Shown here: positions 28,668-64,000 of the stretch, one piece after another
Layout of the letters: each line of letters begins with the position of its first letter
How positions within the stretch are numbered: the stretch's first letter is position 1
From: Antedon mediterranea
Taxonomy: Eukaryota; Animalia; Echinodermata
Assembly (NCBI RefSeq): GCF_964355755.1
Contig: NC_092680.1
Coordinates: 5,518,001-5,582,000, forward strand
Length of the DNA: 64,000 nucleotides
Reading direction: 5' to 3'
The notes under the pieces: model-generated
The model's input: only the letters and a program-made list of their open reading frames with translations
Database searches by the model: none
What the model was told of the DNA's origin: nothing
Program-made: the position numbers and the translations under genes

Positions 28668-28699
<32 letters not shown>

Positions 28700-38052: not shown

Positions 38053-39430
38053 ATGGTCTATTTTTACGTTGTTCGATGTTGGTTAATGTTGATATACTAC
38101 AGTTCGTTTGTTAATACTCAGATGCCTACAATACATCCTATTGAAATTCAAGTGTGGGTTGGAGATAAGGCTACTTTTGAATGTACCACTAGTGTGACAC
38201 CTTCTGAGATGAAATGGTTGTGGTTTAAGACGTATATGGGCAGAACTTCATTTCTAGTGATTGAGGAAGAAGTTATCGATTTCAGATATGAATTTAAAAT
38301 TGACGATGATAGAAGGAAGAGTACACTAACAATATTAAATATCACAGTTGAGGATGGTAACGAGCAATATTACTGTGTGAATATGGAACAAAATCGATAA
38401 ATGCAACACTCTTAGTTCTTATAGGAACTAAGTTAGACATAAAATATCCAGAGTGTAAATCTGATAACAGTACAGTAAATACAGAGAAAACACTTACACT
38501 TCAGCCTGTTTTCCTGTCGACGTTATTCGACGCTATCGTTAACAATTATCGGCGATCTTCAACTTCCGATGACAACAAATCTTATCTAGCTGGGTTGAAA
38601 CATTTGCTGACTGCTGAAGACGAGACGTCAATATTCACACGTAGAGAAGGTATAGCAGCAACTGTTAACCAAAGTTGTTCCATAACGCTCACCATTCCAC
38701 CAACGGTCACTATCATTATAACCCTGACATCCTTTGCTGTTATGGACCCGTTAGAATTTACATGTAAAGTGATGAGTCCGTGGAATGTTACGACATATAT
38801 CTGAAAGTACGATAATAAACCGATTGATCTGACAAGTAAAAAATTCAAACTCAACAGTGACAACACTGAGTTAACTATATCAAATTTACAATCAGAAGAT
38901 GAAGACAATATAGTAGAATGTACATCGATGTCATTTGGATTGAGTGGTAGAGATTTGGTAATAATTTCAATGTATGATTCGAATGAGAAGCAGGAAAATA
39001 GTACACTTTTAATAATGTTTGTAGTGGTTGGATCTGTAGTTTTGACACTGTTGGTATGATTTTCTATCTTCATACTCTTCCAAAATCAGAGACAAAGACG
39101 ACAAAAAGATTATCGAAAACAAGAAGAAATTCTGACAATAAAAACCAGTCTAATACAAATGGGAATTAGCGCGATGCCCTCTAAACAGTATGTCATTGTC
39201 AGAGAATATTTCTCACGAAACTAGTGTTTTCAATTTTCATACCTGAACTAACCTCTTCAAGACATTCTTGTGAAAGGCATACCGATATAACTGATAGAAA
39301 TGAGACTGAAGGAAGAAATAGCTCCGAAACATCGTCATTGGAAAACAATGAAAGCAATGGTAAAGTTAATAAGACTAAAATCGGACACGAATTAATGAAT
39401 ATTCTATATTTGGTATTAAACAATATATAA
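38053..39430 (+). pseudogene. IgSF receptor 1 (long-tail class), pseudogene
   Basis: Leader and V domain open (FEC...WFK...STLTILNITVEDG..YYC). Frameshift at ~38375, D2 partly replaced by unrelated sequence (~38500-38578), stops at ~38802 and ~39057. D3 and TM are homologous to the 43051/55680/58574 genes. Confidence 0.8.
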
Positions 39431-39874
39431 ATTATTTACACACCAGGTATCGTTTGAAGTTATACGGTATGTAGCATAAATTATATGTTAGTATTTCGAA
39501 ATTTTAAATTTAAGCAATTAAATGAAGAAAGGGAAGTTCTATTAAACTTTTCTAATCGTTCCTATTTATTCCTCGACATTTCTTGGGATTTTTAAGCAAT
39601 GCTTTAGTTATATATAGATAGAAAATCCAAATTAAAAGAAAAAATTACTTTTTATTAAATTGTTAGAATCTACATTAATATTTACAACATGTCTACAATA
39701 ATGGTGGTAGGAAAGATTTTTATAGGTGACCCGTAGATGTTTTGAAAAAGAAATTCAATTCAATACCGGTACTGTTGTTAACGGTAAGTAAATATTATTT
39801 ACACACATTGAATACAATGTGCCATTGCGTGTCATACACAACAAAACATAGATTGAAATACAGTATAATAATAG

Positions 39875-39942
39875 ACGCGTTTAACCGAGACCAACAGACA
39901 ACCATCGATAACACTAATCAATCGTTTCAGTTTCTGTGAATC
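39875..39942 (+). promoter_or_regulatory. Conserved upstream element of the IgSF genes (ACGCGTTTAACCGAGACCAACAGACAACCATCGA...CAGTTTCTGTGAATC)
   Basis: Recurs ~70-140 nt before the ATGs of several genes (48614, 55556, 57278) and as orphan copies (46421, 51793). A promoter or 5'UTR role is inferred. Confidence 0.5.
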
Positions 39943-40013
39943 ATAATACATTTGGATAAGATAACTTCTCGTTTTTTTTATATATTAAACATCATTTTTG
40001 AAATTAAAGCAAG

Positions 40014-41294
40014 ATGGTATATTTGTTTGTTATTCGGTGGTTGTTAATGTTGGTTTATTGCAGCTGGTTTGTTGATGCTCGTACCACTATACATCCTACT
40101 GAAATCCACGCGTTGGTTGGAGATAATGCTACAATTGAATGCAGTACTAGTAGAACGCCGTCAGATACGACGATATGGTGGTGGTTTAAAACATTTAGTC
40201 ACTCAACTATACAAATAGCGATTGAGGAAACATTTGTCGATGTCAGATATGAATTAAACATTGATGACGATAGAAGGAAGAGTACACTGACAATATTAAA
40301 TGTTACAGTGGAGCATGGTCACGTTCAATATTATTGTCAATATGGAACTGTGTCAACAATGAATGCTACACTAATTATTACAGGAACAAAATTAGATTTA
40401 CAATATCCAGAATGTCAATCTGATAACAGTGTCGCCAATACAGAGAAAAAAATTACACTAACATGCAGTGCAATTGGTGGCGATCCAAGACCATTATTAC
40501 AGTGGTATACAGATGGCGAAAGGGTTACAGAACAAATTCAAAGTTATTGCGACTGTGATGGTATATCTTATATTTCTATGTTGACGCATGTGCTGATTGC
40601 TAAATATGAGTCGGCAATATTTACATGTAAAGCAGAAGGTATAGCAGCAACTGTTGACCAAAGTTGTTCCATAACACCAGCAATTCCACCAACGGTCATT
40701 ATCATTGCAAACACAACCACTTTTGCAGATGGCGACTCTTTAGAATTCACATGTACGGTAATGACCCCTTGGAACATTACAAATTATATTTGGACGATTG
40801 ATAACCAGTTACTCACTTTGAGTAGATTCAGGTATAGAATGAAAAACGACGGAAGTGTTCTTACAATATTTGATCTAGATCAAACTCATTACAACATCAG
40901 ATGTAACGTAACCACTGCATCTGGATTACTTGGTAGTGACGATGTTGAAATTACCTATGTAGGCCTAGATGAAATGGATAATGATTCAAACAATTTAACA
41001 CTGACTCTATGTCTTTCACTTGGTATGTTTTTAGTTGGATTTATCATGGGTAGTCTGGTTACATTTCGGAAAAACCTGAAATTTTTCTGTGTGAATGAAC
41101 CTCAGTCTGAATCAAAACCACCTGCTGAAAATACTCATCTAAGCTTAAGTTCTTCTGTTGATAAACCTTACTATCAGGAAACAATCATTTCGTCTGAACA
41201 GATTGTTTGCTCCGAAACTGATTATTCAGAACTAACTCCAACGACTCCTTCAATATACAGCGAATTAAACGAACTGAAGGTGCAGAAGAAGTGA
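40014..41294 (+). CDS. IgSF receptor 2: signal peptide, V, C2, C2/I, TM, short tail with ITAM (426 aa, single coding exon)
   Basis: Uninterrupted ORF with three Cys/Trp Ig cores, TM LTLTLCLSLGMFLVGFIMGSLVTF and tail ETDYSELTPTTPSIYSEL. Confidence 0.9.
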   Translation: MVYLFVIRWLLMLVYCSWFVDARTTIHPTEIHALVGDNATIECSTSRTPSDTTIWWWFKTFSHSTIQIAIEETFVDVRYELNIDDDRRKSTLTILNVTVEHGHVQYYCQYGTVSTMNATLIITGTKLDLQYPECQSDNSVANTEKKITLTCSAIGGDPRPLLQWYTDGERVTEQIQSYCDCDGISYISMLTHVLIAKYESAIFTCKAEGIAATVDQSCSITPAIPPTVIIIANTTTFADGDSLEFTCTVMTPWNITNYIWTIDNQLLTLSRFRYRMKNDGSVLTIFDLDQTHYNIRCNVTTASGLLGSDDVEITYVGLDEMDNDSNNLTLTLCLSLGMFLVGFIMGSLVTFRKNLKFFCVNEPQSESKPPAENTHLSLSSSVDKPYYQETIISSEQIVCSETDYSELTPTTPSIYSELNELKVQKK

Positions 41295-41369
41295 ATATAC
41301 GATTGTCATAAAAGTTGTTCTTTATACAGGAACACTCGTTGGAGTTTATGTTATTATTTGTAAATATAT

Positions 41370-42263
41370 CAAAAGGCGGAAATATAAAAATAAGATGCTG
41401 AGATTGATTTTGAAGAGAAAAAGAAGAAATACTAATAGATCAAAAAACTTTATTATCGGTATCTTTAATGGTTGGTAAGTTGCCTTTTCCTTGCACGTTT
41501 AGGAACCCGGCCTTGTTTTTTTGGTGTTTGTGACTTTTCTTACAGTACTTCTTTATATTTATATATTTTTTGCTTTTTAAAATGAATTGTAAATATCCAA
41601 TCTTATATTTTTTTATATATTGTTTGCAATAAAGATGAATATGAATGAATATGAATGAATAATGTTTCGTCTTTTTTTAGAGAATTTAAGTCTTTATGAT
41701 ATCTGAAATGAAAGTTGCTAGGAACCAACATACTGTAGTTATTAGTGTTATTAAACTAATCTAACAATTGTTCAAATTTTCTATAATTCATCAATTTATA
41801 AAAAATCATTTCAAAATGTGTTGTTTCAATTCAATTTATTAATGATCTGTTGAGATGAAATAATTAGTAAAAATGCTTTATGAAAAGTATGCTGAAGTAC
41901 GTTTTGTTATTGTTATTAGAGTCACATTAATATTTATAATAGGTCTAAGAATAATGGTACTAGTGATATTTTAAAGATATTTATAGGTGAAGTTTAGTTA
42001 ACATAGTCATGCTAAATTAAATTAATTGGATCAAATCGCGAAGCATAAAGATATTTTAATAACGATTGACGGTAAGCAAATATAATTGAGGACTACATGC
42101 CATGTGATCAAAAGAAAACCAACGAGCAATAACCAAACGACAGTTGTATTAGTTTAAATGAATTATTCTTTATTTTAGATCAGACAAGTTATCGTTTTAT
42201 TTTACATTAAAATTTATTTTGACAAAGTAAAGGAATATGGTATATTTTTACGTTGTTACGTAG
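41370..42263 (+). pseudogene. Degenerate paralog of 37290-38075: A2M 3' end, IgSF upstream region and abortive leader codons
   Basis: AGGCGGAAATATAAAAATA...GATGCTGA, GTCTTTTT..AGAATT.AAGTCT, ATGAAAG.TGCTA and GATCAAAAGAAAACCA all match 37290-38050 in order. Ends ATGGTATATTTTTACGTTGTTACGTAG at 42237-42263. Confidence 0.6.
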
Positions 42264-43050
42264 TTCCTAATTTTATTCTTGATACAAATTAGTGTTTTTT
42301 TAATAATTTGTCAGAGTGAAGTGCGCTTTTACTATACTTACTCCTCCCATGCGAATTAGTATACAAACACATAATAAGGCAGAAAAAGGGTAATTCTAGT
42401 AATAATAATAAATAAATAAATAAATAAATTATTTATATCTGAAAGTGGCCTATATTTGCAGTAAACTTGTTACGTTCTCTTATGGATCTATTTTTTTTAA
42501 ATACTAACATTTCACAACATAATAATACTTATTAAAATCCAAATATGTTTAATTTTTTTTTAAAAATTTGAGACCAAAGTTACTATCTATTTCGCCATAG
42601 TTAATGTAGGCTTCATGCGTACGATGCGCCCTCTGTCAAAGTATTTATAAAGCTATAATTAAATGTATTCCTATGAGATGTTCAAATACTACTGTCCTGG
42701 TATTACTATAGTTATTGTTCAACATTTTAATAATTCTACACAAATAACAGTGCTATGGGATATTGTTAAAGCAATTTATATATGAAGCTAGTTGACATCA
42801 GTCATGCTAAATTAAAGGTTTTGGATAAATTATACGAAGCATAATGGTGTTTTGAAAATAAACTAAACTCAATACCCTTGTTAACAGTAAGTAAATATTA
42901 TTAGGACCCACAGTTAATAAAATGTGCCAGGCGCAACAAAACACGTCGTTGCTATTGTGAATCACACATTCGTTAATTAGATAGATATATACATACATTA
43001 TATCTAGATTCTTCTTTTCACTAAACATTATTTTGAGGAAGTAAAGCAAG

Positions 43051-44530
43051 ATGGTTCATGTGTACGTTTTTCAATGGTTGTTAATGCTGGCTTATTGCAG
43101 CTCATTTGTTAATGCTTTTACAACTATACATCCTACTGAAATCAAAGTGTAGGTTGGAGATAGTGGTACTTTTGAGTGTAACACAACTGCCACGTTACCT
43201 TCAGACAAGAAATGGATGTGGTTTAAGACGTATAGCTACCGCACGATACTCTTAGTGACTGAGGGACAAGAGTTTAACGATGCCAGATACGCATTAAACG
43301 TTGACGACGATAGAAAAAAGAGTACACTGACAATATTAAATATTACAGTGGAGGATGATCAATATAAATATTACTGTCAATTGGGATCTGATGTATCAGC
43401 AATAAATGCCACACTCATAGTTATTTCAGGAACTAAGCTAGAAATACAATTTCCTCTGTCTCAATATAATAACAGTATAGCGAATACTAATAAAACAATT
43501 ACACTGACATGCAGTGCAATTAGTGGTGATCCAAGACCACTATTACAATGGTACAGAAACGGTAAAAAGCTCACAGAACCGGTTCAATACCAAAGTTATG
43601 TCAATGAAATGCATTATATTGCTGTGTTGGAGCATTTGTTGACTGCTGAAGATGAGACAGCAATATTTACATGTAAAGCAGAGGGTGTTGCAGCAACTGT
43701 CAATCAAAGTTGTTCCATAAAACCAGCAATTCCACCGACGGTAACTATCATTACAAACACAACAACTGTTGCTGTTGGGGACTCATTAGAATTTACATGT
43801 AAAGTGATGAGTCCGTGGAATATTACCACTTATATCTGGAAGTATGATGATCAACCGATTGATTTGACAAGTAAAACGTTCAAACTCAACAGTGACAGAA
43901 CTGAATTAACTATTTCAAATTTACAATCAGCAGATGCTGAGAAAGTAGTAAAATGCATAGCGAATACGTTATCTGGATTGAGTGGTAGTGATTCTGTAAT
44001 AATTTCAATATATGATTCGAATAAGCAGGAAAATAGAACACTTTTAATAATATTGGTAGTAGCTGGAGCTGTAGTGTTTATAGTTTTGGTATGTATTGCG
44101 ATTTTCATATTATGTCAAAATCAAAACCGGCAAAAAGAAAACCGGATGAAAAAAGAAAATTCAGCCGACTACGCTATCGTTTTTAAAACAAATGACAACA
44201 TGCGTGGTGTACCTCAAAACAATCTAAATATTACGGAAGATATTTCTGGTAAAACTGGTGATATAGTTCCCGAACTAACAACTTATTCACATGAGAATCG
44301 TATAACTGCTAAAAATGAGACTGAAGGAACATATAGTTTCGAAACGTATGGACATTCATCAGACCATGATGGAAATACGACAAACGAAGATGGTATTGAT
44401 GCTTTGTATGCACAACCGGTAAAACCTAGAAAATCGGATATTCGTTGTAGGCCTACCACCAGATTTTAAAGAATTATATGCAAAACCAATGAAGGAAACA
44501 AAAGGAAAAGTTAACATACTTTTACATTAA
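43051..44530 (+). pseudogene. IgSF receptor 3 (long-tail class), premature stop at the start of the V domain and a tail frameshift
   Basis: ATG 43051 with leader MVHVYVFQWLLMLAYCSSFVNA. TAG at 43150-43152 where paralogs have TGG or TTG. Open V-C2-C2-TM runs to 44469 with ALYAQP; a shifted frame continues DFKELYAKP to TAA at 44528-44530. Confidence 0.8.
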
Positions 44531-44934
44531 AGGGAACCACTCGGTATAAAATGTGTATCCACATTGAAAATCTCACTAGTTTTATAATGATTTGCACAAT
44601 TGAAAGCTAATGCCTATTTGGTATTAAACAATATAATTAATTTAAACCTGGAAGTGTGAAATCTTATGGAATATGGAAAAGAAAGTATATTTATAGTTGT
44701 ATATGTTTAGCCTGTAACTATTTAATTGGTCAAACAAGCAAATTAAATTGCATTATTAAATATACGCAGGGGTAAATGTATCTATTTTATTGTATAATTG
44801 CAATAGCTGGCTGCTCCCAAAGTTGTTATGAAAAAAATTGATACCTGTCATAGGTCCCAAGAACTATTATTAATGTGAAATATCCGAAAAAGATTAGCAA
44901 TAATAAGTTATATTTGGTAACAAATACTAAACCT

Positions 44935-45240
44935 TTATCTGAGAATGTAAATAAACTTAGGTGGTCTATGCATGGAGTTGTTATTAGATAACAACTCCCT
45001 GGTCTATGCTTGGCCATATACTTAGAATGAGTGAAGATACTCCTGCTTTTTCAGCATTGGTGTTTGGTATAGTACACTCTAATCCAATACAAGGGCGAAT
45101 TGGAAAACATCAAACCAATCTGTTAAGTACACTTAGAAATGATTTATTTATCAGAAATGTTAAGATAAATAATTTAAACGACCTAATTAATTTGCGTGAG
45201 ATTGCCAGCAACAGAAATAAGTGGCTTTTGTTATTTTGAA
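44935..45240 (+). mobile_element. 3' fragment of a non-LTR retrotransposon ORF2 (RTE-like)
   Basis: WSMLGHILRM...GRIGK...LREIASNRNKW resembles the C-terminal region of RTE-type ORF2. Confidence 0.55.
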
Positions 45241-45837
45241 TCTTTATTTTTACGTTATTTTATATTTTGTGTTGTTGTAGGATGCATGCATATAAGAACG
45301 TATCAGATTTTGTAAATCCACAGTGCGTAGGTTTTTTACATTTTTTGGAATAAAGTTACCTATATATATAAATGTATTTATAAAGTGTAAGCAAAATGCA
45401 TTTGTAAACAACTGTAATACACCAACTATTATTAGTAGTTATAATGTATATGTTTCAGATCACTTGATCATCTGGCCGCATATAGATAACCAGTAGGCCT
45501 AGAAATTAATCGTTTAATTGATCACCTGTCAATTAGTTCATAGATCAAGTTATAGCATACAAATATAATTAATTTGGCCTCATATCACGTGGTGCGACAT
45601 TATTAAATTCACTCTACTTCAGACTTACAAAAAACCTTCTCTTTATAATTATATGCAAATCCAAATAATCAATTCTAAATTGGATCAATTATTAAAAAGC
45701 ATAACAAAAAATGTTCCGAAAAGAAACTCAATACCGTTGTTAATATTAATACTTCTTTCTTGGAGATCCAAGAAACATTTATTATATATGGCCTTTGGCC
45801 CAAATAATATACAATGTAATACAATATTAAATAAATA

Positions 45838-46330
45838 TCAGTTGAGTGCGTTTAGAAATTCTGTTCTACGTTTAAATGAAAAGAATAAATATTTTCCAAG
45901 TTTAACAATAAGATCAGTATTTGTGGCAGACATAAGATAAATATATTTTAATTTAGTTGGGTTGTTTGTATAAAAGGAAAACATATATTTAGTTCTAATA
46001 TCTGAATAAAATGGACAAACTAAAGTGAAATGATATTCATCTTCAATTGATTGTAAAGCACATAATTTGCATAATCTTTCATTTCTATTTATACAATTCC
46101 ATCTTCCTTTTTCAATTTCTAATTCTAAAATTCCTAGTCGTATCTTAGTCATAATTTGTCTATGTTTGTAATTTGTTACTTTTGTTAGATATTCTTCAAT
46201 TCCAAACTTATATTTAACGTGCTTGTAATATTGGAGCTTAGAGTGTAGCCTAGTATCTTCGTAGAATTTCTGTCGTTCAATGTCTGTAAGCCTTTGTTTA
46301 AAATTTGAAATAAAAGTATATATATTATTA
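45838..46330 (-). mobile_element. 3' fragment of a non-LTR retrotransposon ORF2 (C-terminal cysteine-rich motif)
   Basis: LEIEKGRW...RLCKLC...IEDEYHFTLVCPFYSDIR, a typical LINE C-terminal CCHC-like motif. Confidence 0.7.
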
Positions 46331-48754: not shown

Positions 48755-50018
48755 ATGGTATACTCTTACGTTGTTTGATGTTGGTTAATGTTGATTTATT
48801 ACAGTTTGTTTGTTAATACTCAAATGCCTACAATATATCCTACTGAAATCCACTTGTTGGTTGGAGATAAGGCTACCTTTGAATGCAGTATTAGTTCGCC
48901 GTCAGAGATGAGATGGCAGTGGTTTAAAACATTCAGAAGCGTTATAGTTTTAGCGCATGAGGGAGAGATTTCCAATTCCAGATATGAATTCAACATTGAC
49001 AACGATAGAAAGAAGAGTACACTAACAATATTAAATAGCACAGTGGAAGATAGTCAATTTAAATATTACTGTCAACAGGGATCGGTATCGATGAATGTCA
49101 CACTCATCGTTATCATAGGAACAAAGTTAGATTCAAAATATCCAGCGTGTCAATCTGAAAACAGTATTGTCAATACGGATAAAACACTTACAATGACATG
49201 CAGTGCAAATGGTGGCGATCCAATACCAGTATTACAAAATGGTACAGAAACGGTAAAAAGGTTACAGAACAGGATCAAAGTTCTGAAAATGAATTATCTT
49301 ATTTTGCTGTTTTAAGCCGTGTGTTGACTGTTGATGATGAGACGGCAAAATACACATGTAGAGCAGAAGGAGTAGCAGCAACTGTTAACCAAAGCTGTTC
49401 CATAACACCAGCAATTCCACCAACGGTTATAATCATTACAGCATATTTTGCTGTTGGCGAATCTTTAGAATTCACGTGTAAGGTAATGACCCCTTGGAAC
49501 ATCACAAATTATATTTGGACGATTGATAACCAGTTAGTCACTTTGAATAGATTTAGGTATAGCATGAACAACGACGGGAGTGTTCTGACAATACTTTATT
49601 TAGATCAAACTCATTACAACATCAGATGTAACGTAACTACTGCATCTGGATTAGTTGGTAGTGACGATGTTGAAATTAACTATGTAGACCTAGATGAAAT
49701 TGATGATGATGCAAACAATTTAACACTAGCTCTATGTCTTTCAGTTGCTACGTTTTCTGTTGGATTTATCATGGGTATTCTGGTTACATTTTGGAAAACC
49801 TTTAAATCTTTTTGTGTAAATAAACCTCAGCCTGAATCAAACAACCAGCTGAAAATACAAATCTAGGCTTAAGTTCTTCTGTTGATAAACCTTACTATCA
49901 GGAGACAATTATTTCGTCTGAACAGATTGTTTCCTCAGAAACTGATTATTCAGAACTAACTCCAACGACTCCTTCAATATACAGCGAATTAAACGAACCG
50001 AAGGTGCAGAAGAAGTGA
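48755..50018 (+). pseudogene. IgSF receptor 4 (ITAM class), pseudogene
   Basis: CGA>TGA at 48776-48778 in the leader, +2 frameshift at ~49236, -1 frameshift at ~49840. ITAM-coding DNA is intact at 49938-49991. Confidence 0.8.
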
Positions 50019-51199
50019 ATAGACGATACTATAAGATTCATCTCTGGAATGTGTATTCTTTATACTGGAATGCTCTAATAGTTTTATTCTATTATTTATA
50101 CGTTATCATACCAAACTCACAGTTCAGGTTTGGACTATTTAACTGGTTTTATTGTTCTTGTTTTGATTTTCTGATCGTTGACTTTGTACATTTTGATGAG
50201 TAAGTTGTTATATATATTTTAATCTTATGTATTTATATTTGAGTCTTTAATGCCTCCTGTAATTGGCAACATCGCTGTTGGATGTATGCGAAATAAAATA
50301 AAATAAAAGAAAATAAAAATGTTTTGATTATGTTTAAAAAACTTTAAGTAGAGAAATTTTATATTATTATTTTTACATAATTATATGCTTTGACAATTTT
50401 ACATGTACATTTTTTTTTTTTTTAATATTTAACATGAACATTGCCTGTATTGTGCAAAAACTAATCGTAGGACATGATAACGTTTTACAGTTTAGAGGCA
50501 CGATTATTTTTATTAACGACGCATGCATGCACGTTCATAAACAGATTTTAGAATAAGCGCTGTAATATGAACATTTTTTTTTACGCTGCTACGTCCCATG
50601 AGGACGACTCATTCATAAGCTAAAGCAAGCAGCAGTTATAGTATCTAAGGTCGACAGTTTTGCTAAAATATAAACTCGACTATAATTTATAGATTTCAGC
50701 TGCTGGACCCAAAAAACGCCTGTGAAAGGAGTCTATGAGGGCTCATGGTTGAACGATTTTGCATTTTCGCCATTTGACTGGTTGACGCGAATCAAGTCAT
50801 GTTGTCTCTAGAGAGGGTATTTAGTTGCATGCCAAACAGTTTGAGGTCACATCAAAGATTTTATGTAGTTGAAGGCTTAACCTCACTGGGTCACACACAT
50901 TTTTAAATGGGCATGTGAATCATAATCAAAGAACTATCTTTGATTTGTGTGTATTTTTGCGATTAAGGGACATCTTTTTGATAATTAATCATAAATATAT
51001 CTGAAGAAAGAACAATGATTAATTTTAAAATGTCGAGCTGCGTTTTATGTCATGACGGAGTCATAGAGTATGGACCTACTTTTTTATATACTAATATTCT
51101 ACAACATAATAATACGTAAAAAAAATACATTGGAAAAGAAATATTTATTTGTAATTTGAGACCAAAATACCTATCACTCAATACTTTTCGGCATTGTTG

Positions 51200-51625
51200 T
51201 ATGCGGTCAGATCCGCCAATATGGTGGTGGTTTAAAATATTCAATGAACTGGCTACACAAATAGCGACTGAGGAAGGATTTATCGATGTCAGATATAGAA
51301 GAAAGAGTACACAATATTAAATATTACAGCAGAGGATGATCAATCGCAACATTACTGTCAATATGGATCTGTATCAATGCATGCCAAACTCATCGTTACC
51401 ACATGAACAAAGTTATAGACACAAAATATCCAGAGTGTCAATCTGATAACAGCGTAGTGAATAGAAAGAAAATACTTTACACTAACATGCAGTGCAAGTG
51501 GTAGCGATCCAAGGCCATTATTACGATGGTACAGAAACGGTAAAAAAGTTACAGGATCAATATCAAAGTTCAGAAAATGAATTATTTTATTTTGATGTTT
51601 TGAGCCGTTTGTTGACTGCTGATAA
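51200..51625 (+). pseudogene. IgSF receptor fragment (partial V and D2)
   Basis: WWWFKIFNELATQIATEEGFIDVRY, HYCQYGS, YPECQSDNS and a GDPRPLL.WYRNG-like sequence, with several indels and no leader or TM. Confidence 0.75.
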
Positions 51626-52150
51626 TATGTATACACTAATGGTTCTATTGATGATGCGCTTAGTTGACATGTTTTGAAAAAGAAATTCAATTCAATACCG
51701 TAGTTAACGGTAAGTAAATTTACACAATTGAATAAAATGTGCCATTGCGTGTCATACACAACAAAAATGGATTGAAATACAGTATAATAATAGACGCGTT
51801 TAACCGAGACCAACAGACAACCATCGATAACACTAATCAATCGTTTCAGTTTCTGTGAATCATAAATACATTTGGATCAGATAAGTTCTCGTAACCAACA
51901 TACTGTATTGTTTCAATCAATTTATTAAGGATCTGTTGAGATGAAATAATAATTAAATGTATTGGATCAAATCGCGAAGCATAACAATATTTTGAAAAAG
52001 ATTGTCGGTAAGCAAATATTATTGAGGACTACATGACATGTGAAGAACCAACGACAGTTGTATTTGTTTATATTTCTTATTATCTATTTTAGATCAGACA
52101 CTTTATCGTTTTATTTTACATTAAAATTAATTTTGAAAAAATAACGGAAT

Positions 52151-53425
52151 ATGTTATATGATTACGTTCTTCGATGGGGCTTAGTGTTGATGTATTACAA
52201 TTTGTTAGTTGATGGTCTTACCACAATACATCCTACTGAAATGCAAGTGTTGGTGGGAGATAATGCTACCTTTGAATGCAGCACTAGTGGTATTCGAGAT
52301 ACGACGAGATGGTGGTGGTTTAAAACATCCAGTCACGATATTACATTAATAGCAAATGAGGAAGGATATTTCGATGTCAGATATAAATTAAATATTGACG
52401 TTGATAGAAGGAAAAGTACACTGACAATATTAAATATCACAGTTGAGGATGGCAAAGCTCAATATTACTGTCAACAGGGATCGGTATCAATGAATGCCAC
52501 ACTCATCGTTATCACAGGAACAAAGTTAGACACAACATATCCAGAATGTCAATCTGATAACAGTGTCGTCAATACAAAGAAAACACTTACACTGACATGC
52601 AGTGCAAGTGGTGGCAATCCAAGGCCATTATTACAATGGTACAGAAACGGTACAAAGGTTACAGAACAGGATCAAAATCAAAATTCGGAAAATGAATTAT
52701 CATATTCTGCTGTTTTGAGCCGCTTGTTGACTGTTGATGATGAGACGGCAATATTTACATGTAAAGCAGAAGGTATAGCAGCAACTGTCAACCAAAGTTG
52801 TTCCATAAAACCAGCAATTCCACCAACGGTCATTATCATTGCAAACACAACATATTTTGCAGATGGCGACTCTTTAGATTTCACGTGTAAGGTAATGACC
52901 CCTTGGAACATTACACATTTTATTTGGATGATTGATAACCAGTTAGTCACTTTGAGCACATCCAGTAAAAACGACGGGAGTGTCCTTACAATATTTGATC
53001 TCGATCAAACTTATAACATTATTAGATGTAACGTAACCACTGCATCTGGATTAGTTGGTAATGACGATGTTGAAATTAACTATGTAGGCCTAGATAAAAT
53101 GGATGATGACTCAACAGCTACCAATTTAACACTGGCTCTATGTCTTTCAGTTGCTACGTTTTTAGTTGGATTTATCATTGGTAGTCTGGTAACATTTCGG
53201 AAAACCCGTAAATCTCACTGTGTAAATGAACCTCAGCCTGAATCAAAACAACCTGCTGAAAATACAAATCTAGGCTTAAGTTCTTCTGTTGATAAACCTT
53301 ATTATCATGAGACAATCATTTCGTCTGAACAGATTGTTTCCTCGGAAACTGATTATTCAGAACTAACTCCAACGACTCCTTCAATATACAGCGAATTAAA
53401 TGAACCGAAGGTGCAGAAGAAGTGA
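52151..53425 (+). CDS. IgSF receptor 5: signal peptide, V, C2, C2/I, TM, ITAM tail (424 aa, single coding exon)
   Basis: Uninterrupted ORF with TM LTLALCLSVATFLVGFIIGSLVTF and ETDYSELTPTTPSIYSEL at 53345-53398. Confidence 0.9.
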   Translation: MLYDYVLRWGLVLMYYNLLVDGLTTIHPTEMQVLVGDNATFECSTSGIRDTTRWWWFKTSSHDITLIANEEGYFDVRYKLNIDVDRRKSTLTILNITVEDGKAQYYCQQGSVSMNATLIVITGTKLDTTYPECQSDNSVVNTKKTLTLTCSASGGNPRPLLQWYRNGTKVTEQDQNQNSENELSYSAVLSRLLTVDDETAIFTCKAEGIAATVNQSCSIKPAIPPTVIIIANTTYFADGDSLDFTCKVMTPWNITHFIWMIDNQLVTLSTSSKNDGSVLTIFDLDQTYNIIRCNVTTASGLVGNDDVEINYVGLDKMDDDSTATNLTLALCLSVATFLVGFIIGSLVTFRKTRKSHCVNEPQPESKQPAENTNLGLSSSVDKPYYHETIISSEQIVSSETDYSELTPTTPSIYSELNEPKVQKK

Positions 53426-55679: not shown

Positions 55680-57206
55680 ATGGTATACTCTTACCTTGTT
55701 CGATGTTGGTTAATGTTGATTTATTACAGTTCCTTTGTTAATACTCAGATGAAACCTACAATACATCCTACTGAAATTCAAGTGTTGGTGGGAGATAATG
55801 CTATTTTTGAATGCAGTACTAGTAGTACACCGTCAGATGAGAAGTGGTGGTGGTGGTTTAAAGTATTTAGTCACTCTACTATAACAATAGCGAATGAACA
55901 AGGGTTTAGTAATACCAAATATGAGTTAAACATTGATGACGACAGAAAGAAGAGTACACTGACAATATTAAATATTACAGAGGAGGATGGTGAGGTTCAA
56001 TATTACTGTCAATATGGAATTATATCAACGAATGCCACACTCATTGCTATCACAGGAACAAAATTAGACTCAAAGTATCCTCAGTGCCAATCTGATAACA
56101 GTGTAGTCAATACTAATAGCAATCTTACCCTGACATGCAGTGCAAGCGGTGGCAATCCTAGACCAGAATTACAATGGTACAAAAACGGTAACAAGGTTAC
56201 AGAACAAGATAACGTTCCGAGCTCTCTCGATGAATCTTATTCTGTTGAAGAGTTGACTTATTTATTAACTTCTGAAGATGAAAGGGCTATATTTACCTGC
56301 AATGCAGAGGGTGTAGCAGCAACTGTCAATCAAAATTGTTCCATAACGCTCACAATTCCACCGACGGTCACTATCATTACAAACACCACATCCTTTGCTG
56401 TTGGAGACTCATTAGAACTTACATGTACCGTAATGAGCCCGTGGAATATAACTTTATATACATGGAATTATGGTGATCAGCCAGTTAAGCAAAGTACAAA
56501 GTTCAAACTAAACAGTGACAATACTGAATTAACTATATTAAATTTACAATCAGAAGATGATGAGAAAGAAGTAGAATGTACAGCTGTGACGTCATCTGGA
56601 TTGACTGGTAATGATTCTGTAATAATTACAATATATGATTCGAAGGAGGAGGAGGAGAAGAAAAATAGCACACTGTTAATAATACTGATAGTAGCTGGAG
56701 CTGTAGTTTTGATACTATTAGTATGTCTTGCGATGTGCATACTATGTCAAAATCGAAAACGGAAAGGGCGAAGAGAAAATCGAAATAAAAACGTAACTTC
56801 AAGCTACTATGATAATGTGCTAACGGAACAAGCAACTTCCATTCATTCGTATGAAAGGCGTATAGATATAACTGCTAGAGATGAGAATGAAGGAACAGTG
56901 AGCTACGTAAATACTTTAGACACTTTTGGAAGTAGGCCTAGTGGTACGTTCGTTGGCTTTGATAAAGACCAGGAGGGAACTGCGACAAATGAAGATGATA
57001 TTGATGCTTTGTATGCACAACCGGTAAAATCAAAAGCAAGCGTTGCAGGCCTACCAACAGATTTTGGAGAATTATATGCAAAACCAATGAAAGGAATAAA
57101 AAGTGAAGTTAGTAACCCTAATGAGGAAGTAGAAGATTTTGGAGAACTTTACGCAAAACCAAATAAAAGCAAAACAGTTCATTTGAACACAATGACGAGG
57201 AAGTAA
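55680..57206 (+). CDS. IgSF receptor 6: signal peptide, V, C2, C2/I, TM, long tail with SYYDNV, VSYVNT, ALYAQP and 2x ELYAKP (508 aa, single coding exon)
   Basis: Uninterrupted ORF with TM LLIILIVAGAVVLILLVCLAMCILC followed by a basic cluster. The last residues appear frameshifted or truncated relative to receptor 7. Confidence 0.9.
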   Translation: MVYSYLVRCWLMLIYYSSFVNTQMKPTIHPTEIQVLVGDNAIFECSTSSTPSDEKWWWWFKVFSHSTITIANEQGFSNTKYELNIDDDRKKSTLTILNITEEDGEVQYYCQYGIISTNATLIAITGTKLDSKYPQCQSDNSVVNTNSNLTLTCSASGGNPRPELQWYKNGNKVTEQDNVPSSLDESYSVEELTYLLTSEDERAIFTCNAEGVAATVNQNCSITLTIPPTVTIITNTTSFAVGDSLELTCTVMSPWNITLYTWNYGDQPVKQSTKFKLNSDNTELTILNLQSEDDEKEVECTAVTSSGLTGNDSVIITIYDSKEEEEKKNSTLLIILIVAGAVVLILLVCLAMCILCQNRKRKGRRENRNKNVTSSYYDNVLTEQATSIHSYERRIDITARDENEGTVSYVNTLDTFGSRPSGTFVGFDKDQEGTATNEDDIDALYAQPVKSKASVAGLPTDFGELYAKPMKGIKSEVSNPNEEVEDFGELYAKPNKSKTVHLNTMTRK

Positions 57207-57398
57207 CCGAATGTAAATATTATTTATAACCCACATTGAATCAAATGTGCCATTGCGTGTCATGCACAACAAAACAGACGCGTTTAACCAAGACCAACAG
57301 ACAACCATCGAAGAAACTTTTCAGTTTCTGTGAATCAGGAATACAAATAACTTCTTGTTTTACTGATATAGAACATCATTTTGAAGAATTAAAGCAAT

Positions 57399-60354
57399 AT
57401 GGTATTTTCCTACGTTATTCGATGTTGGTTAAAATGAACCTGAAATGGATTTTCGATTTTCAAGAAATTCACACATGTTATTTAAATGTATCAAATTAAC
57501 ACAAACCCATACAAATAAAAACAAAATGTATAGTATTTTGAGTAAAAATGAAATTTTAAGATACCATGGTAAATTAGCGAAAATTACTCACGCCATTGCA
57601 ATATATTATTTCAACGGCCGTCGGAAGCCCCTATATTCACGACGTCACATATACACACGATGATATCGAGAGCGTGTATGCCGCCCGATAGTCAGTGAAT
57701 GATCGACGGCCTGGAAAGATACCCGAAGCGTTGACACTAATACTAATTTATTCAATATCTAATGTTGTTGAAATATAGGTCCCTAAAATGTACTTCGTTT
57801 GTTCTAAAACCCGAATTTAGAAGGCCTACCTCCCAAACCTTTACTAGGCCTAACTAGGCTAGGCCCCCAATCCAGCGGAGTCGATCCACTACCCACATCA
57901 TGCGGCGAGGCTCCGTTTCATGTGCATCCAAGGACCAAAGCGATATCAACAACTTGCTGCGCTCATTGTCAAGCCAAAGTAAAATATGAATAAAATTCGT
58001 TTTCGAACTGCCTGATTCGTGACAAATAAATTATCATCTCATATTACTAATTTAATTCTGCTAAACTAAAAACTAAAGAAACTAACTAACACATTTTAGC
58101 AGTATAAATTACGAACGATATACAAAATACACGAACGGAAAATATGGATACGCATCATTGCGCACGGAGCTGTATCCCGGACAACGTTGCCAGGCCAACT
58201 TCGGTATTGCCAGAAAAAAACCGTTGATTTTAAGATTTTAAATCGTCATTTACTTGATAAATAACCGTTTATACGGTAATAATTTTATCTAAAAAAATTC
58301 TAAATACGTTTCTGCAAATGCACAAGCATTTTTTAGAAAATACTCCATAGATTTCAAGAGTTATAGCCAAAAAACTGCAAATTGTCCATTGGAGGGATAG
58401 GAATATATTCGCAAAGTGACGTCACCCGCGAATTTTTTTGATTTTCAAATAGGGCTTTCCTCAAAAGGGCCAATTTATATTTTGTAACAATATACATTCT
58501 ATCAACACCTAATAGCCCCCAAAACATCATTCTAAAATGAAAAAAATCGAAAATCCATTTCAGGTCCATTTTAATGTTGATTTATTACAGTTCGTTTGTT
58601 ATTACTCAGATGCCTACAATATATCCTACTGAAATCAAATCGTGGGTTGGAGATAAAGCTACCTTTGAATGCAGCACTAGTGATATTTCTTTAAATATGA
58701 CAAAATTGAGGTGGTTTAAAACATTCAATCAAATGGCTACACAAATAGCGATTGATGAAGGATTTATAAATGTCAGATATGAATTAATCATTGATGGATA
58801 TAAGAGTACATTGACAATAATAAATATCACAGTAGAGGATGGTAAATTTCAATATTCCTGTGAATATGGTTCTGTATCATCAATGACTGCTATACTCATA
58901 ATCATTAATGGAACTAAGTTAGACTCAAGGTATCCTGAGTGTCAATCTGATAACAGTGTAGTCAATACCGAAAAAAAACTTAAAATGACATGCAGTGCAA
59001 GTGGTGGCGATCCAATGCCATTGTTAAAATGGTATAGAAACGGCAACAATGTTACAGAACAGGACCAATCTCAAAGTTCTGTAGATGACTTATCTTATTT
59101 TGCTGTGTTGAACCATTTGTTGACTGCTGATGATGAGTCTGCAATTTTTACCTGCAAAGCAGATGGTGTAGCAGCAACTGTTGACCAAAGTTGTTCCATA
59201 AAGTTAGAAATTCCACCGATGGTCACTATTATTACAAACACAACTTTTGTTGCTGGGAGCTCATTAGAATTCACCTGTAAAGTAATGACTCCGTGGAATA
59301 TTACCACTTACATATGGAAGTATGGTGATCAACTAGTTGTTCCTAGTACAAAGTTCAAACTAAACAGTGACAATACTGAATTAACTATATCAAATTTACA
59401 ATCAGAAGATGACAAGAAAGTAGTAGAATGTACAGCTATGACGTCATCTGGATTGAATGGTAATGATTCTGTAATAATTTCAATATATGATTCGAATGAT
59501 CCGAATGAGGAGCAGGAAAAAAGCACACTGTTAATAATACTGGTAGTAGCTGGAGCTGTAGTTTTGATACTGTTGGTATGTCTTGCGATGTGCATACTAT
59601 GTCAAAATCGAAAAAGGAAAGGGCAAACAGAAAATCGAAATCAAAACGTTACTTCAAGCTACTATGAGAATGTGCTAAACAAAAATGAAACTGGTGATTT
59701 GGAACTAGCAACTTCCATTCACTCGTATGAAAGGCGTATAGATATAACTGCTAGACATGAGAATGAAGGAACAGTGAGCTACGTAAATGCATCATCATTG
59801 GACACATTTAGAATCAGGCCTAGTGATACGTCTGTTGGCTTTGATAAAGACCAGGAGGGAAATTCGACACATGACGACGATATTGATGCTTTGTATGCAC
59901 AACCGGTAAAATCAAAAGCAAGCGTTGTAGGTCTACAAACAGATTTTGGAGAATTATATGCAAAACCAATGAAAGGAGTAAAAGTGAAGTTAGTAACCCT
60001 AACGAGGAAGTAGATGATTTTGGAGAACTTTACGCCAAACCAAACAAAAGCAAAAAAGTTCACGCGAAACACAATAACGGGGAAGTAACCGATTTTGGAG
60101 AGATTTATGCAAAACCAAATAAAGGTGGAAAAGATCACACAAAACACAATGATGATGAAGTACAGGATTTTGGGGAACTTTACGCAAAACCAAATAAAAG
60201 CAAATCAGTTCACACGAAACACAATAACGAGGAAGTAACCGATTTTGGAGAGCTTTATGCAAAACCAAATAAAGGTGGAAAGGGTCATATGCAACACAAT
60301 AATGACGAAGTACAGGATATGGGTGACCTATATGCAAAACCAATAAAACTTTAA
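57399..60354 (+). CDS. IgSF receptor 7 (long-tail class): leader split by a transposon, tail with a 1-nt frameshift before five more YAKP repeats
   Basis: Leader codons 57399-57431 (MVFSYVIRCWL), then the insertion, then ORF 58574-60013. The tail continues in another frame to TAA at 60352-60354. Confidence 0.7.
57433..58570. mobile_element. Non-autonomous DNA transposon with TTAA target duplication and 28-bp TIRs (Kolobok-like)
   Basis: TTAA (57429-57432)|AATGAACCTGAAATGGATTTTCGATTTT ... AAAATCGAAAATCCATTTCAGGTCCATT|TTAA (58571-58574), 1 mismatch. RR...YY termini fit Kolobok better than piggyBac. The empty site TGGTTAATG is seen in paralogs. Confidence 0.85.
59942..60354 (+). repeat. 75-nt (25-aa) coding tandem repeat, D(F/M)G(E/D)(L/I)YAKP
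   Basis: Unit starts at 59942, 60016, 60091, 60166, 60241 and 60316. The first interval is 74 nt, marking the 1-nt deletion. Alternating A/B units give a 150-nt higher-order period. Confidence 0.9.
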
Positions 60355-61027: not shown

Positions 61028-61307
61028 AGATGTATTGCCTCCTGAAAAAATAATTCGTAAACATTTGTTTGTTAAATATGCCATTTGAATGTCCCATAAT
61101 AGTTATCCACTTTGACCAAAAATTTGATTGAAAAAAATGTATTTACCTGAAAAACTGTAATTTAAAGCAAAACTTAAAAGAAATGGTCTGCCAGCCAATG
61201 AATTTTTGGTTTTTTTCTACTGAAGTGATTAACTTTATTAAAACTACAAAATAACCTATTAAAGGTCTCATTTAATTTTTCATGTTTTTGGGGGAAAATA
61301 TACATCT
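61028..61307. mobile_element. TTAA-flanked MITE (Kolobok-like)
   Basis: TTAA|AGATGTATT...ATATACATCT|TTAA; same family as the copy at 4752. Confidence 0.7.
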
Positions 61308-62188
61308 TTAATTAATTAGTTAAGATGAAAAATCAAATTATAGCACACATAAAATAAATGCATTATTGAATTCAGACTTACAACCAACCTCCATTGTAAT
61401 TATATTCAAATCCAAATAAAGGAAGAAGTTAATCATACAAGTAAAGTATCTGATTTGAGAAATTTATTTAAAAATCAAAATTTTACATAAAGGTTCTCGA
61501 CGGTTACTTGGATCTTTGATAGTGCACAACGTAATTGAAGTGTCTAATCAGGATCACATTATAAAAAGTCTTTCAAATATATTTAGGCATTATTATTAAT
61601 GATCAGGGGTTCACTTTGACTTATATAAACTATTATTCTTTTCATTATGTAAACGCAAACGGTGTCAGTTTAATAAATCATTATAACATTTACGTTACTT
61701 ACTGTTTTCTGTGTTGTTTTTGGTTACTTTTTGTACAATCTGAAAAATAATTGAATAGCAAGATTTAATTTTTAACACTGTGTTGTTGAATAATATAAAC
61801 TAGAACATCAAATATTGAAAACTTTGGCACAATCGAGACTCGAATTTGCTCGATATTAAGATGTACAATATACTGTTGATAATATTATTTATGTTGATTT
61901 TTATTGGTTAACAATACTCGGAAATTGACCTTTAAAAAATCGTCTGTACTTTAAACCTAAGTGACTAATTACCGGTAAGACAAGGAAGCTATACAAATTA
62001 GAAAAATGCACGTTTAGATGTTTCTACAAGCAAAACGGATACAATATAATCACAATAAATAACACTTGATAAATAAAATGTGGGAAAATGTTACAAATAT
62101 TTTACTACTAAGAAAACTGCGGCTAGAGGAATATTCTTGTAGCCGGTTACGACTTCGTACTGCTACAGTACTACACTCTTTATTGAAA

Positions 62189-64000
62189 ATGGAAAGATAT
62201 TGCTGGTGTGGGAAAATTAGATACTTGTTGCTTTGTATTCTCATACAATCTTGTTGCTTTTCTTTTGGATTCAGTAAAATTATAATACATCCAGCAGAAC
62301 AGCATGTTTTTGTCGGAGAAAATGCGATAGTTGAATGCAATAATCATCACGACGAGAAACAGTTTTGGAAATGGTATAGCGTGACCGAAAACAATCTCAA
62401 CGCCAAATTAATATGGAATGAACGTTCGAATGTTATTAAACAAAGTAGGTTTAACTTTGAAGTTTATGAGCAAAGGAAAAGTAGTTCCAGTAGACTGACG
62501 ATAATGGGTGTTACAGTTGCTGACCAGGCTAAATACATCTGTTCACATGGAACTTTTTTAGCAATTGCTAACATTTCAGTGACCATTGGTAAACGATTGG
62601 ACTCCAATTATCCAGAGTGCAAAACACACTTCTCAGAAGTCAACACAGAGAAAAAAGTACAGATGAATTGCACTGCAAATGGCGGCGAACCAAGACCAAC
62701 ATTAAAATGGTACAGAAACGGTGAAAAATTAAAAGAATTTGATAAATTTCTTCTTTCTAATGGGACTTGCACGAATAATGTTGAATATTTATTGACACCT
62801 AATGACGAAGGGGCTGTGTTCACATGTAGAGCAGAAGGCGTGGCAGCAGATGACAATCATAGTTGTTCCATTTCTTTAGAAACTCTTCCAACGGTCACCA
62901 TTATTGCAACTGAAACATCCTTCACTGTTGGTAACTCAATGGGGTTCACATGTATGGTAATGAGCCCGTGGACCGTCACAAGCTACAGGTGGACGTTTGA
63001 TAATCAGATGGTGCAGTTATCAAATCCAGAATTTAGACATGATATTAATAATAGTATGTTAGTTAAATTGAATTTACAAGAAGACGATGAAGCTAAAGAA
63101 ATTGAATGCATTGCGATGACGGCCTCTGGGTTAAATGCTAGCGATTCTGTGCAAATTTCACTTGCACATAAAAGTCGCAAAATTGTTTTAAAAGCGGTTG
63201 CAGGAATAGTAACTCTGTTATGGGCGTGTATTATCATATTGGTTATAATAAAGAGAAATCCAATTAAATCATTAGTTACTAATTGTAATGTATCTACAAG
63301 GGATAGGCATACTGTTATAAATGATGTATCATCACCGTCCAAAACAAGCAGCAACTCTATACATAACGATATAAAATCGCAATCAGAAGAGTCAAATAGT
63401 TTTCCTATTAGAAGAAATATTGAACAAGAAAGTGTTTCATTCGATACTAATGCTGACTCTTTCGACACTTATGGAAGTATTAGTAATTTACAAGATTTGG
63501 ATTCACAGGAACGCGAACATGTTTGTAACAAGCAAACCGTTACAGGAAGTGACGATGTTCTTGACTCTCACGATACGTATGTATCGATGTTAGCCCGACC
63601 TCATAAACCACATAGAAGAACTTATTTCGTTGATTTAAATTCAAAACCAATAAAAGAAACCCACGGAACACCATCAGTTAGTAAGTTAGTCCATTCTAGA
63701 ACTATATATGCAAAACCACTGAATATGACGCAACACCGACGTTCACGATCGTCTGGGACACTGGCCGATTTTAGATATCTTTATGCAAAACCAAATAAAA
63801 AAACTAAACGACACGATAAACCACACTTGTATAGAATACATGGTTATAAAGCTATCTATGCAACGCCTACTATACGTCCCAAATCAATACATCAATCACT
63901 CGAAGATATTTCAAAAGTAACTAAAAATGACTCGTATAAAAACCGGTTGGGATCAGTTGATAATTTGTACGCCCAGCTTAACAGTAATTCCTTAGGAATG
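62189..64000 (+). CDS. IgSF receptor 8, divergent member with a long Tyr-rich tail (3' end beyond the window)
   Basis: Translated by hand; absent from the ORF track because no stop falls in the window. Leader MERYCWCGKIRYLLLCILIQSCCFSFG, V (VEC..WKWY..RLTIMGVTVADQAKYIC), YPECK..NCTANGGEPRPTLKWYRNG..FTCRAEG, FTCMVMSPW, TM AVAGIVTLLWACIIILVII, tail DTYGSI, DTYVSM, TIYAKP, YLYAKP, AIYATP, NLYAQL. An in-frame upstream ATG at 62078 is possible. Confidence 0.85.
   Translation, partial: MERYCWCGKIRYLLLCILIQSCCFSFGFSKIIIHPAEQHVFVGENAIVECNNHHDEKQFWKWYSVTENNLNAKLIWNERSNVIKQSRFNFEVYEQRKSSSSRLTIMGVTVADQAKYICSHGTFLAIANISVTIGKRLDSNYPECKTHFSEVNTEKKVQMNCTANGGEPRPTLKWYRNGEKLKEFDKFLLSNGTCTNNVEYLLTPNDEGAVFTCRAEGVAADDNHSCSISLETLPTVTIIATETSFTVGNSMGFTCMVMSPWTVTSYRWTFDNQMVQLSNPEFRHDINNSMLVKLNLQEDDEAKEIECIAMTASGLNASDSVQISLAHKSRKIVLKAVAGIVTLLWACIIILVIIKRNPIKSLVTNCNVSTRDRHTVINDVSSPSKTSSNSIHNDIKSQSEESNSFPIRRNIEQESVSFDTNADSFDTYGSISNLQDLDSQEREHVCNKQTVTGSDDVLDSHDTYVSMLARPHKPHRRTYFVDLNSKPIKETHGTPSVSKLVHSRTIYAKPLNMTQHRRSRSSGTLADFRYLYAKPNKKTKRHDKPHLYRIHGYKAIYATPTIRPKSIHQSLEDISKVTKNDSYKNRLGSVDNLYAQLNSNSLGM

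Follow-up and report, generated by a model that had tools for sequence, protein, structure and literature searches.

A tandem array of feather-star immunoglobulin receptors with a putative common pool of V-C2 modules on two kinds of tail

Here we describe a tandem array of immunoglobulin (Ig) receptor genes in the feather star Antedon mediterranea. It lies in a stretch of 64,000 nucleotides of AT-rich DNA (28–37% GC; contig NC_092680.1, positions 5,518,001 to 5,582,000), hereafter the window, to which all coordinates refer. Eight single-exon genes and pseudogenes follow one another on the + strand within 26 kb, and each is named by its start position. The order of parts is signal peptide, V domain, C2 domain, I-type domain (domain 3), transmembrane segment and tail, with one exon per coding region. 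The tails are of two classes: a short one with an ITAM (immunoreceptor tyrosine-based activation motif; 40014, 48755 and 52151), and a long one with YxxP motifs. The main new result appears to be a mosaic, in which a single pool of V-C2 modules is mounted on two signalling chassis.

This mosaic is visible in the distribution of class-diagnostic sites. When the three ITAM-class copies are compared with four long-tail copies, none of the 607 ungapped columns of the signal peptide, V and C2 is diagnostic, as against 76 of 357 in domain 3, stalk and transmembrane segment; any other three-to-four split of the seven copies gives at most 3 diagnostic sites in the first region. It can therefore be inferred that sensing modules have been exchanged between the two chassis. 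DNA identities within and between classes are alike across the signal peptide, V and C2 and diverge near residue 240 of the 55680 product, beyond which they are 0.8–0.9 within a class and 0.4–0.55 between classes. The module switch is inside the single exon, near the start of domain 3. Synonymous divergence (dS) between classes is 0.35–0.97 in V versus 1.1–1.8 in domain 3, while within classes it is 0.53–0.90 in V versus 0.16–0.40 in domain 3. The DNA tree of domain 3 separates the classes at 100/100, a split absent from the V and C2 trees. Of the five array copies compared, the two with the most similar V domains, 40014 and 55680 (76% amino acid identity), belong to different classes and stand at the top of a cross-class range of 57–76%. 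The per-domain V comparison of dS and identity was made without 48755, which the partition analysis includes; the DNA trees and site counts exclude 62189, and the protein trees exclude 38053.

Variation in the V domain is unevenly spread. The seven copies are 45% identical on the partition formed by the BC loop, C-C'-C'' and FG, versus 73% elsewhere, and the ratio of nonsynonymous to synonymous divergence (dN/dS) is 0.69 on this loop and front-face partition versus 0.31 elsewhere. Xenopus CEACAMs are likewise described as varying on the CC'C''FG face in the portion of PMC5112662 available. Among array copies dN/dS is below 1 in V, C2 and domain 3, and positive selection was not found by NG86, per domain or per structural partition. 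The pattern fits either diversification or relaxed constraint on a putative binding face, with positive selection not proved. The GTKL that follows the V domain was considered as a sign of VJ-type organization and rejected, as in the model it comes after strand G.

Signalling tails and relatives of the array

The short tails end in ETDYSEL-TPTTPSI-YSEL-NEPKVQKK or nearly so, an ending that we take to resemble those of DAP12 and FcR-gamma. Fifteen ITAM residues are identical in all three copies, the two tyrosines are 11 residues apart, and the strict pattern (ETDYSEL-x7-YSEL) arises in only 0.001–0.002 of 3000 tail shuffles. The tail also satisfies the ITAM definition given in the accessible text of Huene et al. 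(10.1101/2022.03.04.482883). The transmembrane segments of the array proteins are uncharged, offering no charged residue for DAP12. In the ITAM class this segment (41070–41140, 53140–53200) contains GxxxG (GFIMG or GFIIG), which the long-tail segments lack and which may favour dimer formation.

In the long tails, YA[K/Q]P, a form of YxxP, occurs three times in 55680, seven times in 57399 and twice in 62189, typically at a spacing of 21–26 residues. The repeats are above chance in these three multi-copy tails (shuffle P 0.012 or less), and the lone YxxP scored in 43051 is at chance level (P 0.19). YA[K/Q]P is also found in four crinoid relatives, with 2–4 each, the long-tail repeats being conserved in Anneissia. 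YxxP is the consensus for p120RasGAP binding. According to the excerpts available, clustered YXXP motifs form the Crk/CRKL binding sites of Gab1 and p130Cas (PMC2175135), and paired phosphotyrosine sites in paxillin and p190RhoGAP bind p120RasGAP (PMC2173105). Judged by its motifs, the dominant element of the long tails would be a YxxP cluster of Crk/Cas type.

A match to the ITIM (immunoreceptor tyrosine-based inhibitory motif), SxYxxV, is found in two of the four readable long tails (55680 and 57399), and 43051 and 62189 lack it within the window. Its frequency is at chance level (shuffle P 0.21 and 0.28), it doubles as a YxN motif, and the ITAM tails match the ITIM consensus as well (SIYSEL); opposing signalling is therefore not established, and the sequence leaves inhibitory signalling by the array long tails unsupported. 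Within the window no tail contains an immunoreceptor tyrosine-based switch motif (ITSM). Only one of six other crinoid long tails (P0004, P0005, P0007, P0010, P0015, P0019) has an ITIM match. Three of six crinoid relatives from outside the window whose C-termini were compared (P0010, P0015 and P0019, from two genera) end in an identical DFTYSSIA. This candidate motif for SH2 or PDZ binding is the strongest pointer to an inhibitory site; array long tails do not end in it, the C-terminus of 62189 lying outside the window.

These results bear on an earlier, sequence-only reading of the window. It had counted three ITAM-tailed copies, and the strict motif indeed stands out in them (P about 0.001), but only two of the three are intact (40014 and 52151), as 48755 is broken. 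Its YAxP motifs hold as repeats beyond chance in three tails, but not as the single motif of 43051. The ITIM that it noted in two tails is present, but at the level expected by chance, and its idea of opposing tyrosine motifs gives way to a dominant YxxP cluster.

In an exhaustive protein search, of which the best 150 matches were considered (12 shorter candidates were fetched and 10 are named), most relatives are long multi-Ig proteins of 23–33% identity. Word-based homologue searches overlooked members found exhaustively, and thus set no bound on family size. Among the relatives fetched, all matches of 34–50% identity are crinoid (P0005, P0015 and P0019 in Antedon; P0004, P0007/8, P0010, P0014, P0030 and P0036 in Anneissia), and the non-crinoid ones fetched and named are 27–29% identical. 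The sequence-only reading had asked whether matches would be only uncharacterized nephrin- or hemicentin-like proteins: the automatic labels of crinoid relatives do include uncharacterized and nephrin-like, but also CADM2-like, NCAM2-like and peroxidasin homolog, and "kin of IRRE-like" occurs among the other array relatives. No ITAM was found in the eight relatives of 34–50% identity whose tails were scanned. A query of the ITAM-class transmembrane segment and tail (P0003, the 52151 product, residues 285–424) matched only itself among 157 candidates, in a word-limited search of proteins 233–742 residues long.

Six array V domains cluster (88/98) apart from those of crinoid relatives and of 62189, and the array is therefore a local expansion. 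The tail of 62189 has SIHQSLEDI and YAKP blocks in common with Anneissia P0010, which makes the YAKP tail the older type. A second, more distant echinoderm three-Ig group comprises P0152 (Antedon), with one match to the ITAM pattern (P 0.03), and P0155 (the sea urchin Diadema), in which the ITIM pattern occurs three times (P 0.003) and YAKP once; these are about 25% identical to array proteins (25–27% for P0155) and 37% to each other.

Structure searches place the array proteins among Ig receptors in general. In Foldseek, the ectodomains of SIRP-alpha and SIRP-gamma (2wng, 4i2x) lead, followed by Necl-4 (ranks 3–4) and CD22, all at 15–18% identity; the Atlas search returned generic Ig clusters, mostly CADM (TM score 0.33–0.38), and a PDB sequence search only generic Ig matches. 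Neither the Foldseek nor the Atlas matches to the model assign a family.

Gene copies, sequencing runs and neighbourhood

The features of the array are as follows.

38053..39400 (3' end approximate), + strand: long-tail-class pseudogene; frameshift near 38376, stops at 38802 and 39057
40014..41294, + strand: intact single-exon V-C2-I-transmembrane gene, 426 aa, with ITAM tail
42238..42274, + strand: leader or upstream-unit remnant, from blastn of upstream units
43051..44530, + strand: broken long-tail-class gene; TAG at 43150, tail frameshift near 44440; YAQP then YAKP
48755..50018, + strand: ITAM-class pseudogene; TGA at 48776, frameshifts near 49237 and 49839; ITAM codons retained
51045..51626, + strand: scrambled V/C2 fragments, from tblastn
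52151..53425, + strand: intact single-exon V-C2-I-transmembrane gene, 424 aa (P0003); ITAM tail ends YSELNEPKVQKK
55680..57206, + strand: open long-tail gene, 508 aa (P0001); 3 YA[K/Q]P motifs, 2 YxN
57399..60354, + strand: long-tail gene, signal peptide split by insertion; tail frameshift near 59980
57433..58570, no strand assigned: 1138-bp insertion in the 57399 signal peptide; 28-bp terminal inverted repeats, TTAA on both sides
62189..64000, + strand: divergent long-tail member, 603+ aa; frame open to the window end
Upstream-unit repeats: 39737–39972, 42848–42929, 46352–46531, 47696–47788, 48599–48760, 51669–51901, 55401–55680, 57204–57400

All eight starts proposed in the sequence-only reading, with their fragments, are confirmed on the + strand. 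The domain layout that it proposed is borne out by Pfam matches to V-set, C2-set_2 and I-set/Ig_3 in the six frames scanned, though V-set exceeds the cut-off in only four of them. Canonical C-W-C residues are present in all three Ig domains of array proteins, with no Fn3 match. An AlphaFold model of P0003 (mean pLDDT 70.9, built on an alignment of eight sequences) has the signal peptide, V, C2 and I-type domains, one transmembrane helix and a disordered tail. The exact 40014 product is absent from the protein collection searched.

Frames are open in four of the eight copies (40014, 52151, 55680 with a shortened tail, and 62189, which runs off the window end), and the other four (38053, 43051, 48755 and 57399) are broken. 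The 55680 tail is cut at about 57210, where the upstream unit of the next duplication unit starts. In 57399 the seven YA[K/Q]P motifs extend over two frames, the last five at 25-aa spacing; homopolymer frameshifts such as that near 59980 could be assembly errors. The 479-aa product annotated for this gene (P0002) begins at the second ATG and has a weak signal peptide. The insertion in 57399 is probably a non-autonomous DNA transposon. With the other array copies, 62189 shares only 24–33% V-domain identity. A conserved non-coding upstream unit precedes most copies and also occurs at orphan positions; it contains a GTAAGT donor-like site, may harbour a 5' untranslated region intron, and marks the duplication unit.

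Nine sequencing runs, none of them recorded as RNA, contain part of 52100–57300, and four of these were compared with the window. Run X5, from a second sample, is taken to be RNA because six of its 14 listed joints are GT..AG joints across introns of a neighbouring thioester-containing protein (TEP) gene. It has no differences from the window over 52157–52566 (52151), 55950–56339 (55680) and 58627–58966 (57399), so that near-whole V domains of 52151 and 57399 are letter-identical in this one other sample, and the gene body of 57399 downstream of the insertion is still represented. X5 spans 40014 with variant letters, leaves the V domain of 62189 uncovered and barely covers 38053, which is not evidence of silence. 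Expression of 52151, 55680 and 57399 is likely, and is not proved because the genes are intronless and X5 also holds non-coding upstream pieces; contig depth in the runs cannot rank genes by expression. One X5 contig of depth 7.4 joins 39796 to 51718, in the upstream units of 40014 and 52151; the joint falls in a 92%-identical upstream repeat and could stem from a haplotype with a deletion, from another copy or from a chimera made in assembly. In run X1, which may be the sample behind the assembly itself, five of eight listed pieces (48.6–54.9 kb) are at depth 148–162 with no differences, and three (60–64 kb) at depth 234–240 with 7–11 differences. The X1 depth pattern and the X5 joint are weak hints of structural variation. 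DNA runs X6 and X8, from a second organism, contain homologous pieces across the array that are 3–13% different, including the 3' flank of 52151.

A 19-kb tandem duplication (1–18586 and 19008–37608) lies immediately upstream of the array. Its main blocks are 96–98% identical, and it may be either genuine or a haplotype left uncollapsed. The duplicated gene encodes a thioester-containing A2M/TEP protein (GCGEQ at 12324 and 31358; TED and A2M_recep domains), and is spliced in X5. Each copy opens with a start resembling a signal peptide and then a mucin-like repeat rich in Thr and Pro (637–1266 and 19643–20227), which has no Pfam match, differs in repeat number between the copies, and is possibly an unusual first exon of TEP. 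Within the array, a 165-aa frame on the - strand (45838–46335) has no Pfam match and presumably resembles the C-terminal end of a LINE (long interspersed nuclear element) reverse transcriptase.

Weighing the explanations

We give about an even chance to the explanation that the long-tail proteins are YxxP adhesion or scaffold receptors and the ITAM proteins their counter-receptors, drawing on a common V-C2 pool to sense non-self, in a design like that of CEACAM1 and CEACAM3. Under this explanation an old crinoid YxxP-tail receptor would have expanded in tandem; we regard the long-tail type as ancestral because two crinoid genera have it and the ITAM tail was seen in the array alone. Unequal crossing-over or conversion within the single exon would then have placed the same V-C2 pool on the ITAM chassis. 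Phosphorylation of the YxxP cluster by Src/Abl-type kinases could recruit Crk-type adaptors or RasGAP, leading to adhesion and cytoskeletal change. The ITAM tyrosines, 11 residues apart, could bind the tandem SH2 domains of Syk/Shark, and the ITAM copies would convert ligand binding into Syk-type activation, for example engulfment; transcripts of both Syk and HTK16 have been reported for a sea star (PMC11593052, text available). The ligands would probably be microbial or other non-self surfaces, and the ITAM copies could counter microbes that turn long-tail receptors to their own use, in the way that CEACAM3 does for CEACAM1. That half of the copies are broken resembles birth-and-death families. 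An immune role is our inference. The family probably evolved apart from vertebrate paired receptors.

Several results weigh against this explanation. In approximately unbiased (AU) tests, an ITAM clade survives for V (p 0.22), for C2 (p 0.21) and for V+C2 (p 0.14), and the longest identical cross-class run in the signal peptide, V and C2 is 33 nt. Repeated exchange is therefore not proved against the alternative of one ancient capture with star-like divergence afterwards: a single capture would by itself explain the low between-class dS in V, while the higher within-class dS in V than in domain 3 suggests further V-C2 reshuffling among copies. Only one stretch of V, C'-D (8 codons), has a dN/dS above 1 (1.2, not significant; bootstrap 0.64), and whole-domain V values are 0.28–0.69. 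The Necl-4/CADM fold match nearly equals that to SIRP, in Foldseek and Atlas. Intronless genes in an RNA run are indistinguishable from DNA carry-over, and X5 was itself found with a stretch of the window.

A more elaborate version, an independently evolved paired system with exon-internal recombination of V-C2 sensors between a Syk-activating ITAM chassis and, as the opposing arm in place of the ITIM, a YxxP chassis of Crk/RasGAP type, with haplotypes of differing gene number and with a KIR/CEACAM-like germline repertoire in coelomocytes, can be put forward only tentatively. An independent paired-receptor system had already been proposed in the sequence-only reading, and the part that stands is the pairing of V-C2 modules with two tails, for which the mosaic is stronger evidence than was then at hand; the inhibitory arm is not supported.

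It is unlikely that these are classical paired receptors, in which the long tails would dampen and the ITAM copies activate, either through SHP phosphatases at SYY[D/E]NV or at the FTYSSI of the relatives, or through RasGAP or Csk at the YxxP repeats. The common V-C2 pool is what such a system would have, DFTYSSIA is identical at the C-terminus of P0015, P0019 and P0010, p120RasGAP binds paired phosphotyrosine sites in paxillin and p190RhoGAP (PMC2173105, as excerpted), and the distant P0155 combines YAKP with its ITIM matches. However, in the array itself the ITIM match is the chance-level, YxN-overlapping one described above, with no instance in 43051 or 62189; an ITIM match is present in a single one of six other crinoid long tails, and the array long tails visible in the window end without DFTYSSIA.

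A cell-recognition or adhesion code of CADM, nectin or Kirre type is improbable. In such a code V domains would bind one another, homo- or heterophilically, in nerve, epithelium or regenerating tissue, the receptors would play no part against microbes, and YxxP and ITAM tails would steer actin or the clearance of self cells. Such a code is consistent with the V-C2-I layout, the automatic names of relatives ("cell adhesion molecule 2-like", "nephrin-like", "kin of IRRE-like"), the mostly CADM Atlas rows and the rank of Necl-4 in Foldseek, the purifying selection across all domains, and the V domains identical in the second sample. On the other hand, identity to any solved adhesion molecule is below 20%, the tails have no CADM or nectin C-terminal motif, and an array that is lineage-specific and half broken is unlike conserved adhesion genes.

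Very little probability attaches to Alr-like allorecognition, in which hyperpolymorphic, homophilic V domains decide between self and non-self. This was a candidate in the sequence-only reading. The clustered V-domain genes with ITAMs do have an Alr-like layout, and the X5 joint and X1 depth differences would be faint hints of structural polymorphism. Feather stars are solitary, however, and no hyperpolymorphism was seen: the two near-whole V domains of 52151 and 57399 have 0 differences in one other sample, which weighs against it, the contigs showing which alleles are present and not which are absent. The array proteins have canonical cysteines and no fibronectin type III (FnIII)-like domain, unlike Alr, and the X5 joint, lying in a repeat of 92% identity, could have been created by the assembler. 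The high interest originally accorded to the array rested on the inhibitory arm and the allorecognition parallel, neither of which is supported by the tests.

A decaying, nearly neutral tandem expansion in which only divergent 62189-type genes matter would account for the four broken copies, the shortened fifth, the fragments and the insertion, but is highly unlikely given dN/dS below 1 in V, C2 and domain 3, an ITAM unchanged in 3/3 copies, pieces in RNA run X5, and homologous pieces, 3–13% different, in DNA runs of a second organism.

Comparison with known systems

In its architecture the array comes close to CEACAM1 and CEACAM3, which, in the available part of PMC5112662, form a tandem cluster with a V-type ligand domain common to long-tail and intrinsic-ITAM receptors, a ligand-binding part that recombines, and variation on the CC'C''FG face. 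Ectodomains common to two classes in one cluster, with an ITAM member, appear from the sequence to give the array two features of paired receptors. A further such feature, recent gene conversion holding a pair near-identical, is not seen: the N exons of Xenopus CEACAM pairs are near-identical (PMC5112662, same part), whereas no cross-class run here exceeds 33 nt, and there is therefore no freshly converted pair. The array differs also in its YxxP-repeat tail, with no established ITIM/ITSM partner, and in its single-exon genes, all of one orientation, with the switch inside the exon; no sequence relationship was found.

SIRPs have a V-C1-C1 ectodomain and either an ITIM tail or a charged transmembrane segment with DAP12. 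The array proteins are like them in having three Ig domains, V first, and in their best Foldseek matches (2wng, 4i2x), but the activation motif is an intrinsic ITAM, the transmembrane segment is uncharged and identity is 17–18%. As C2-set_2 also outscores C1-set (42.6 versus 24.2 bits for domain 2 of 52151), we reject membership of SIRP. Siglecs, including CD22, have an essential Arg on the V-domain F strand, and are rejected in turn, as the array has QYYCQ or QYSCE on this strand and no Arg. CADM/Necl and nectin proteins share the V-C2-C2/I-transmembrane layout and the automatic database names, and carry a protein 4.1 motif and a C-terminal PDZ/afadin motif. We reject membership here too: the array C-termini lack those motifs and named non-crinoid matches are 27–29% identical, and the array differs in its ITAM or long tyrosine-repeat tails and in being lineage-specific, with pseudogenes.

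Among invertebrates, the Hydractinia Alr complex is likewise a cluster of V-domain, single-pass proteins with ITAMs in several tails, but Alr proteins combine V/I-set with FnIII-like domains, and domains 2–3 lack paired cysteines (10.1101/2022.03.04.482883, text available); with V-C2-I, canonical C-W-C in three domains and no Fn3 match, the array is not an Alr family. The Botryllus FcoR genes are an Ig family of an invertebrate deuterostome, with swapped tyrosine motifs and haplotype copy-number variation; in the accessible account, ITIM and hemITAM are swapped by alleles and splicing and paired with FF genes (PMC12582321), whereas the array has a full two-tyrosine ITAM, swapped by genomic mosaic. 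The oyster CgIgIT2 is an invertebrate Ig receptor with a classic ITAM and reported microbe binding, but has five Ig domains, and no paired array is described in the part of PMC11999971 available.

The design is thus known elsewhere, and the array seems to belong to none of the named families compared, as the sequence-only reading had anticipated: none matched, close relatives are crinoid-restricted in the searches, and homologue searches turned up no known adhesion gene as a one-to-one orthologue. In the literature searched, which is mostly outside subscription journals, neither this family nor echinoderm ITAM-bearing Ig receptors were found described. Sea-urchin genome surveys reportedly mention clusters of V-domain Ig genes. 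Clustered ITAM-bearing Ig receptors have been described in vertebrates, Hydractinia and Botryllus (as hemITAM), and an ITAM Ig receptor in the oyster (PMC11999971, as far as available). The crinoid case would fill the echinoderm gap among deuterostomes, and would support the view that tyrosine-motif signalling is old and the receptors reinvented. It would add two testable twists to the known systems, a YxxP-repeat tail instead of an ITIM tail and module exchange within single-exon genes, and since the genes are short, intronless and easily cloned, reporter cells offer a direct test of the tails.

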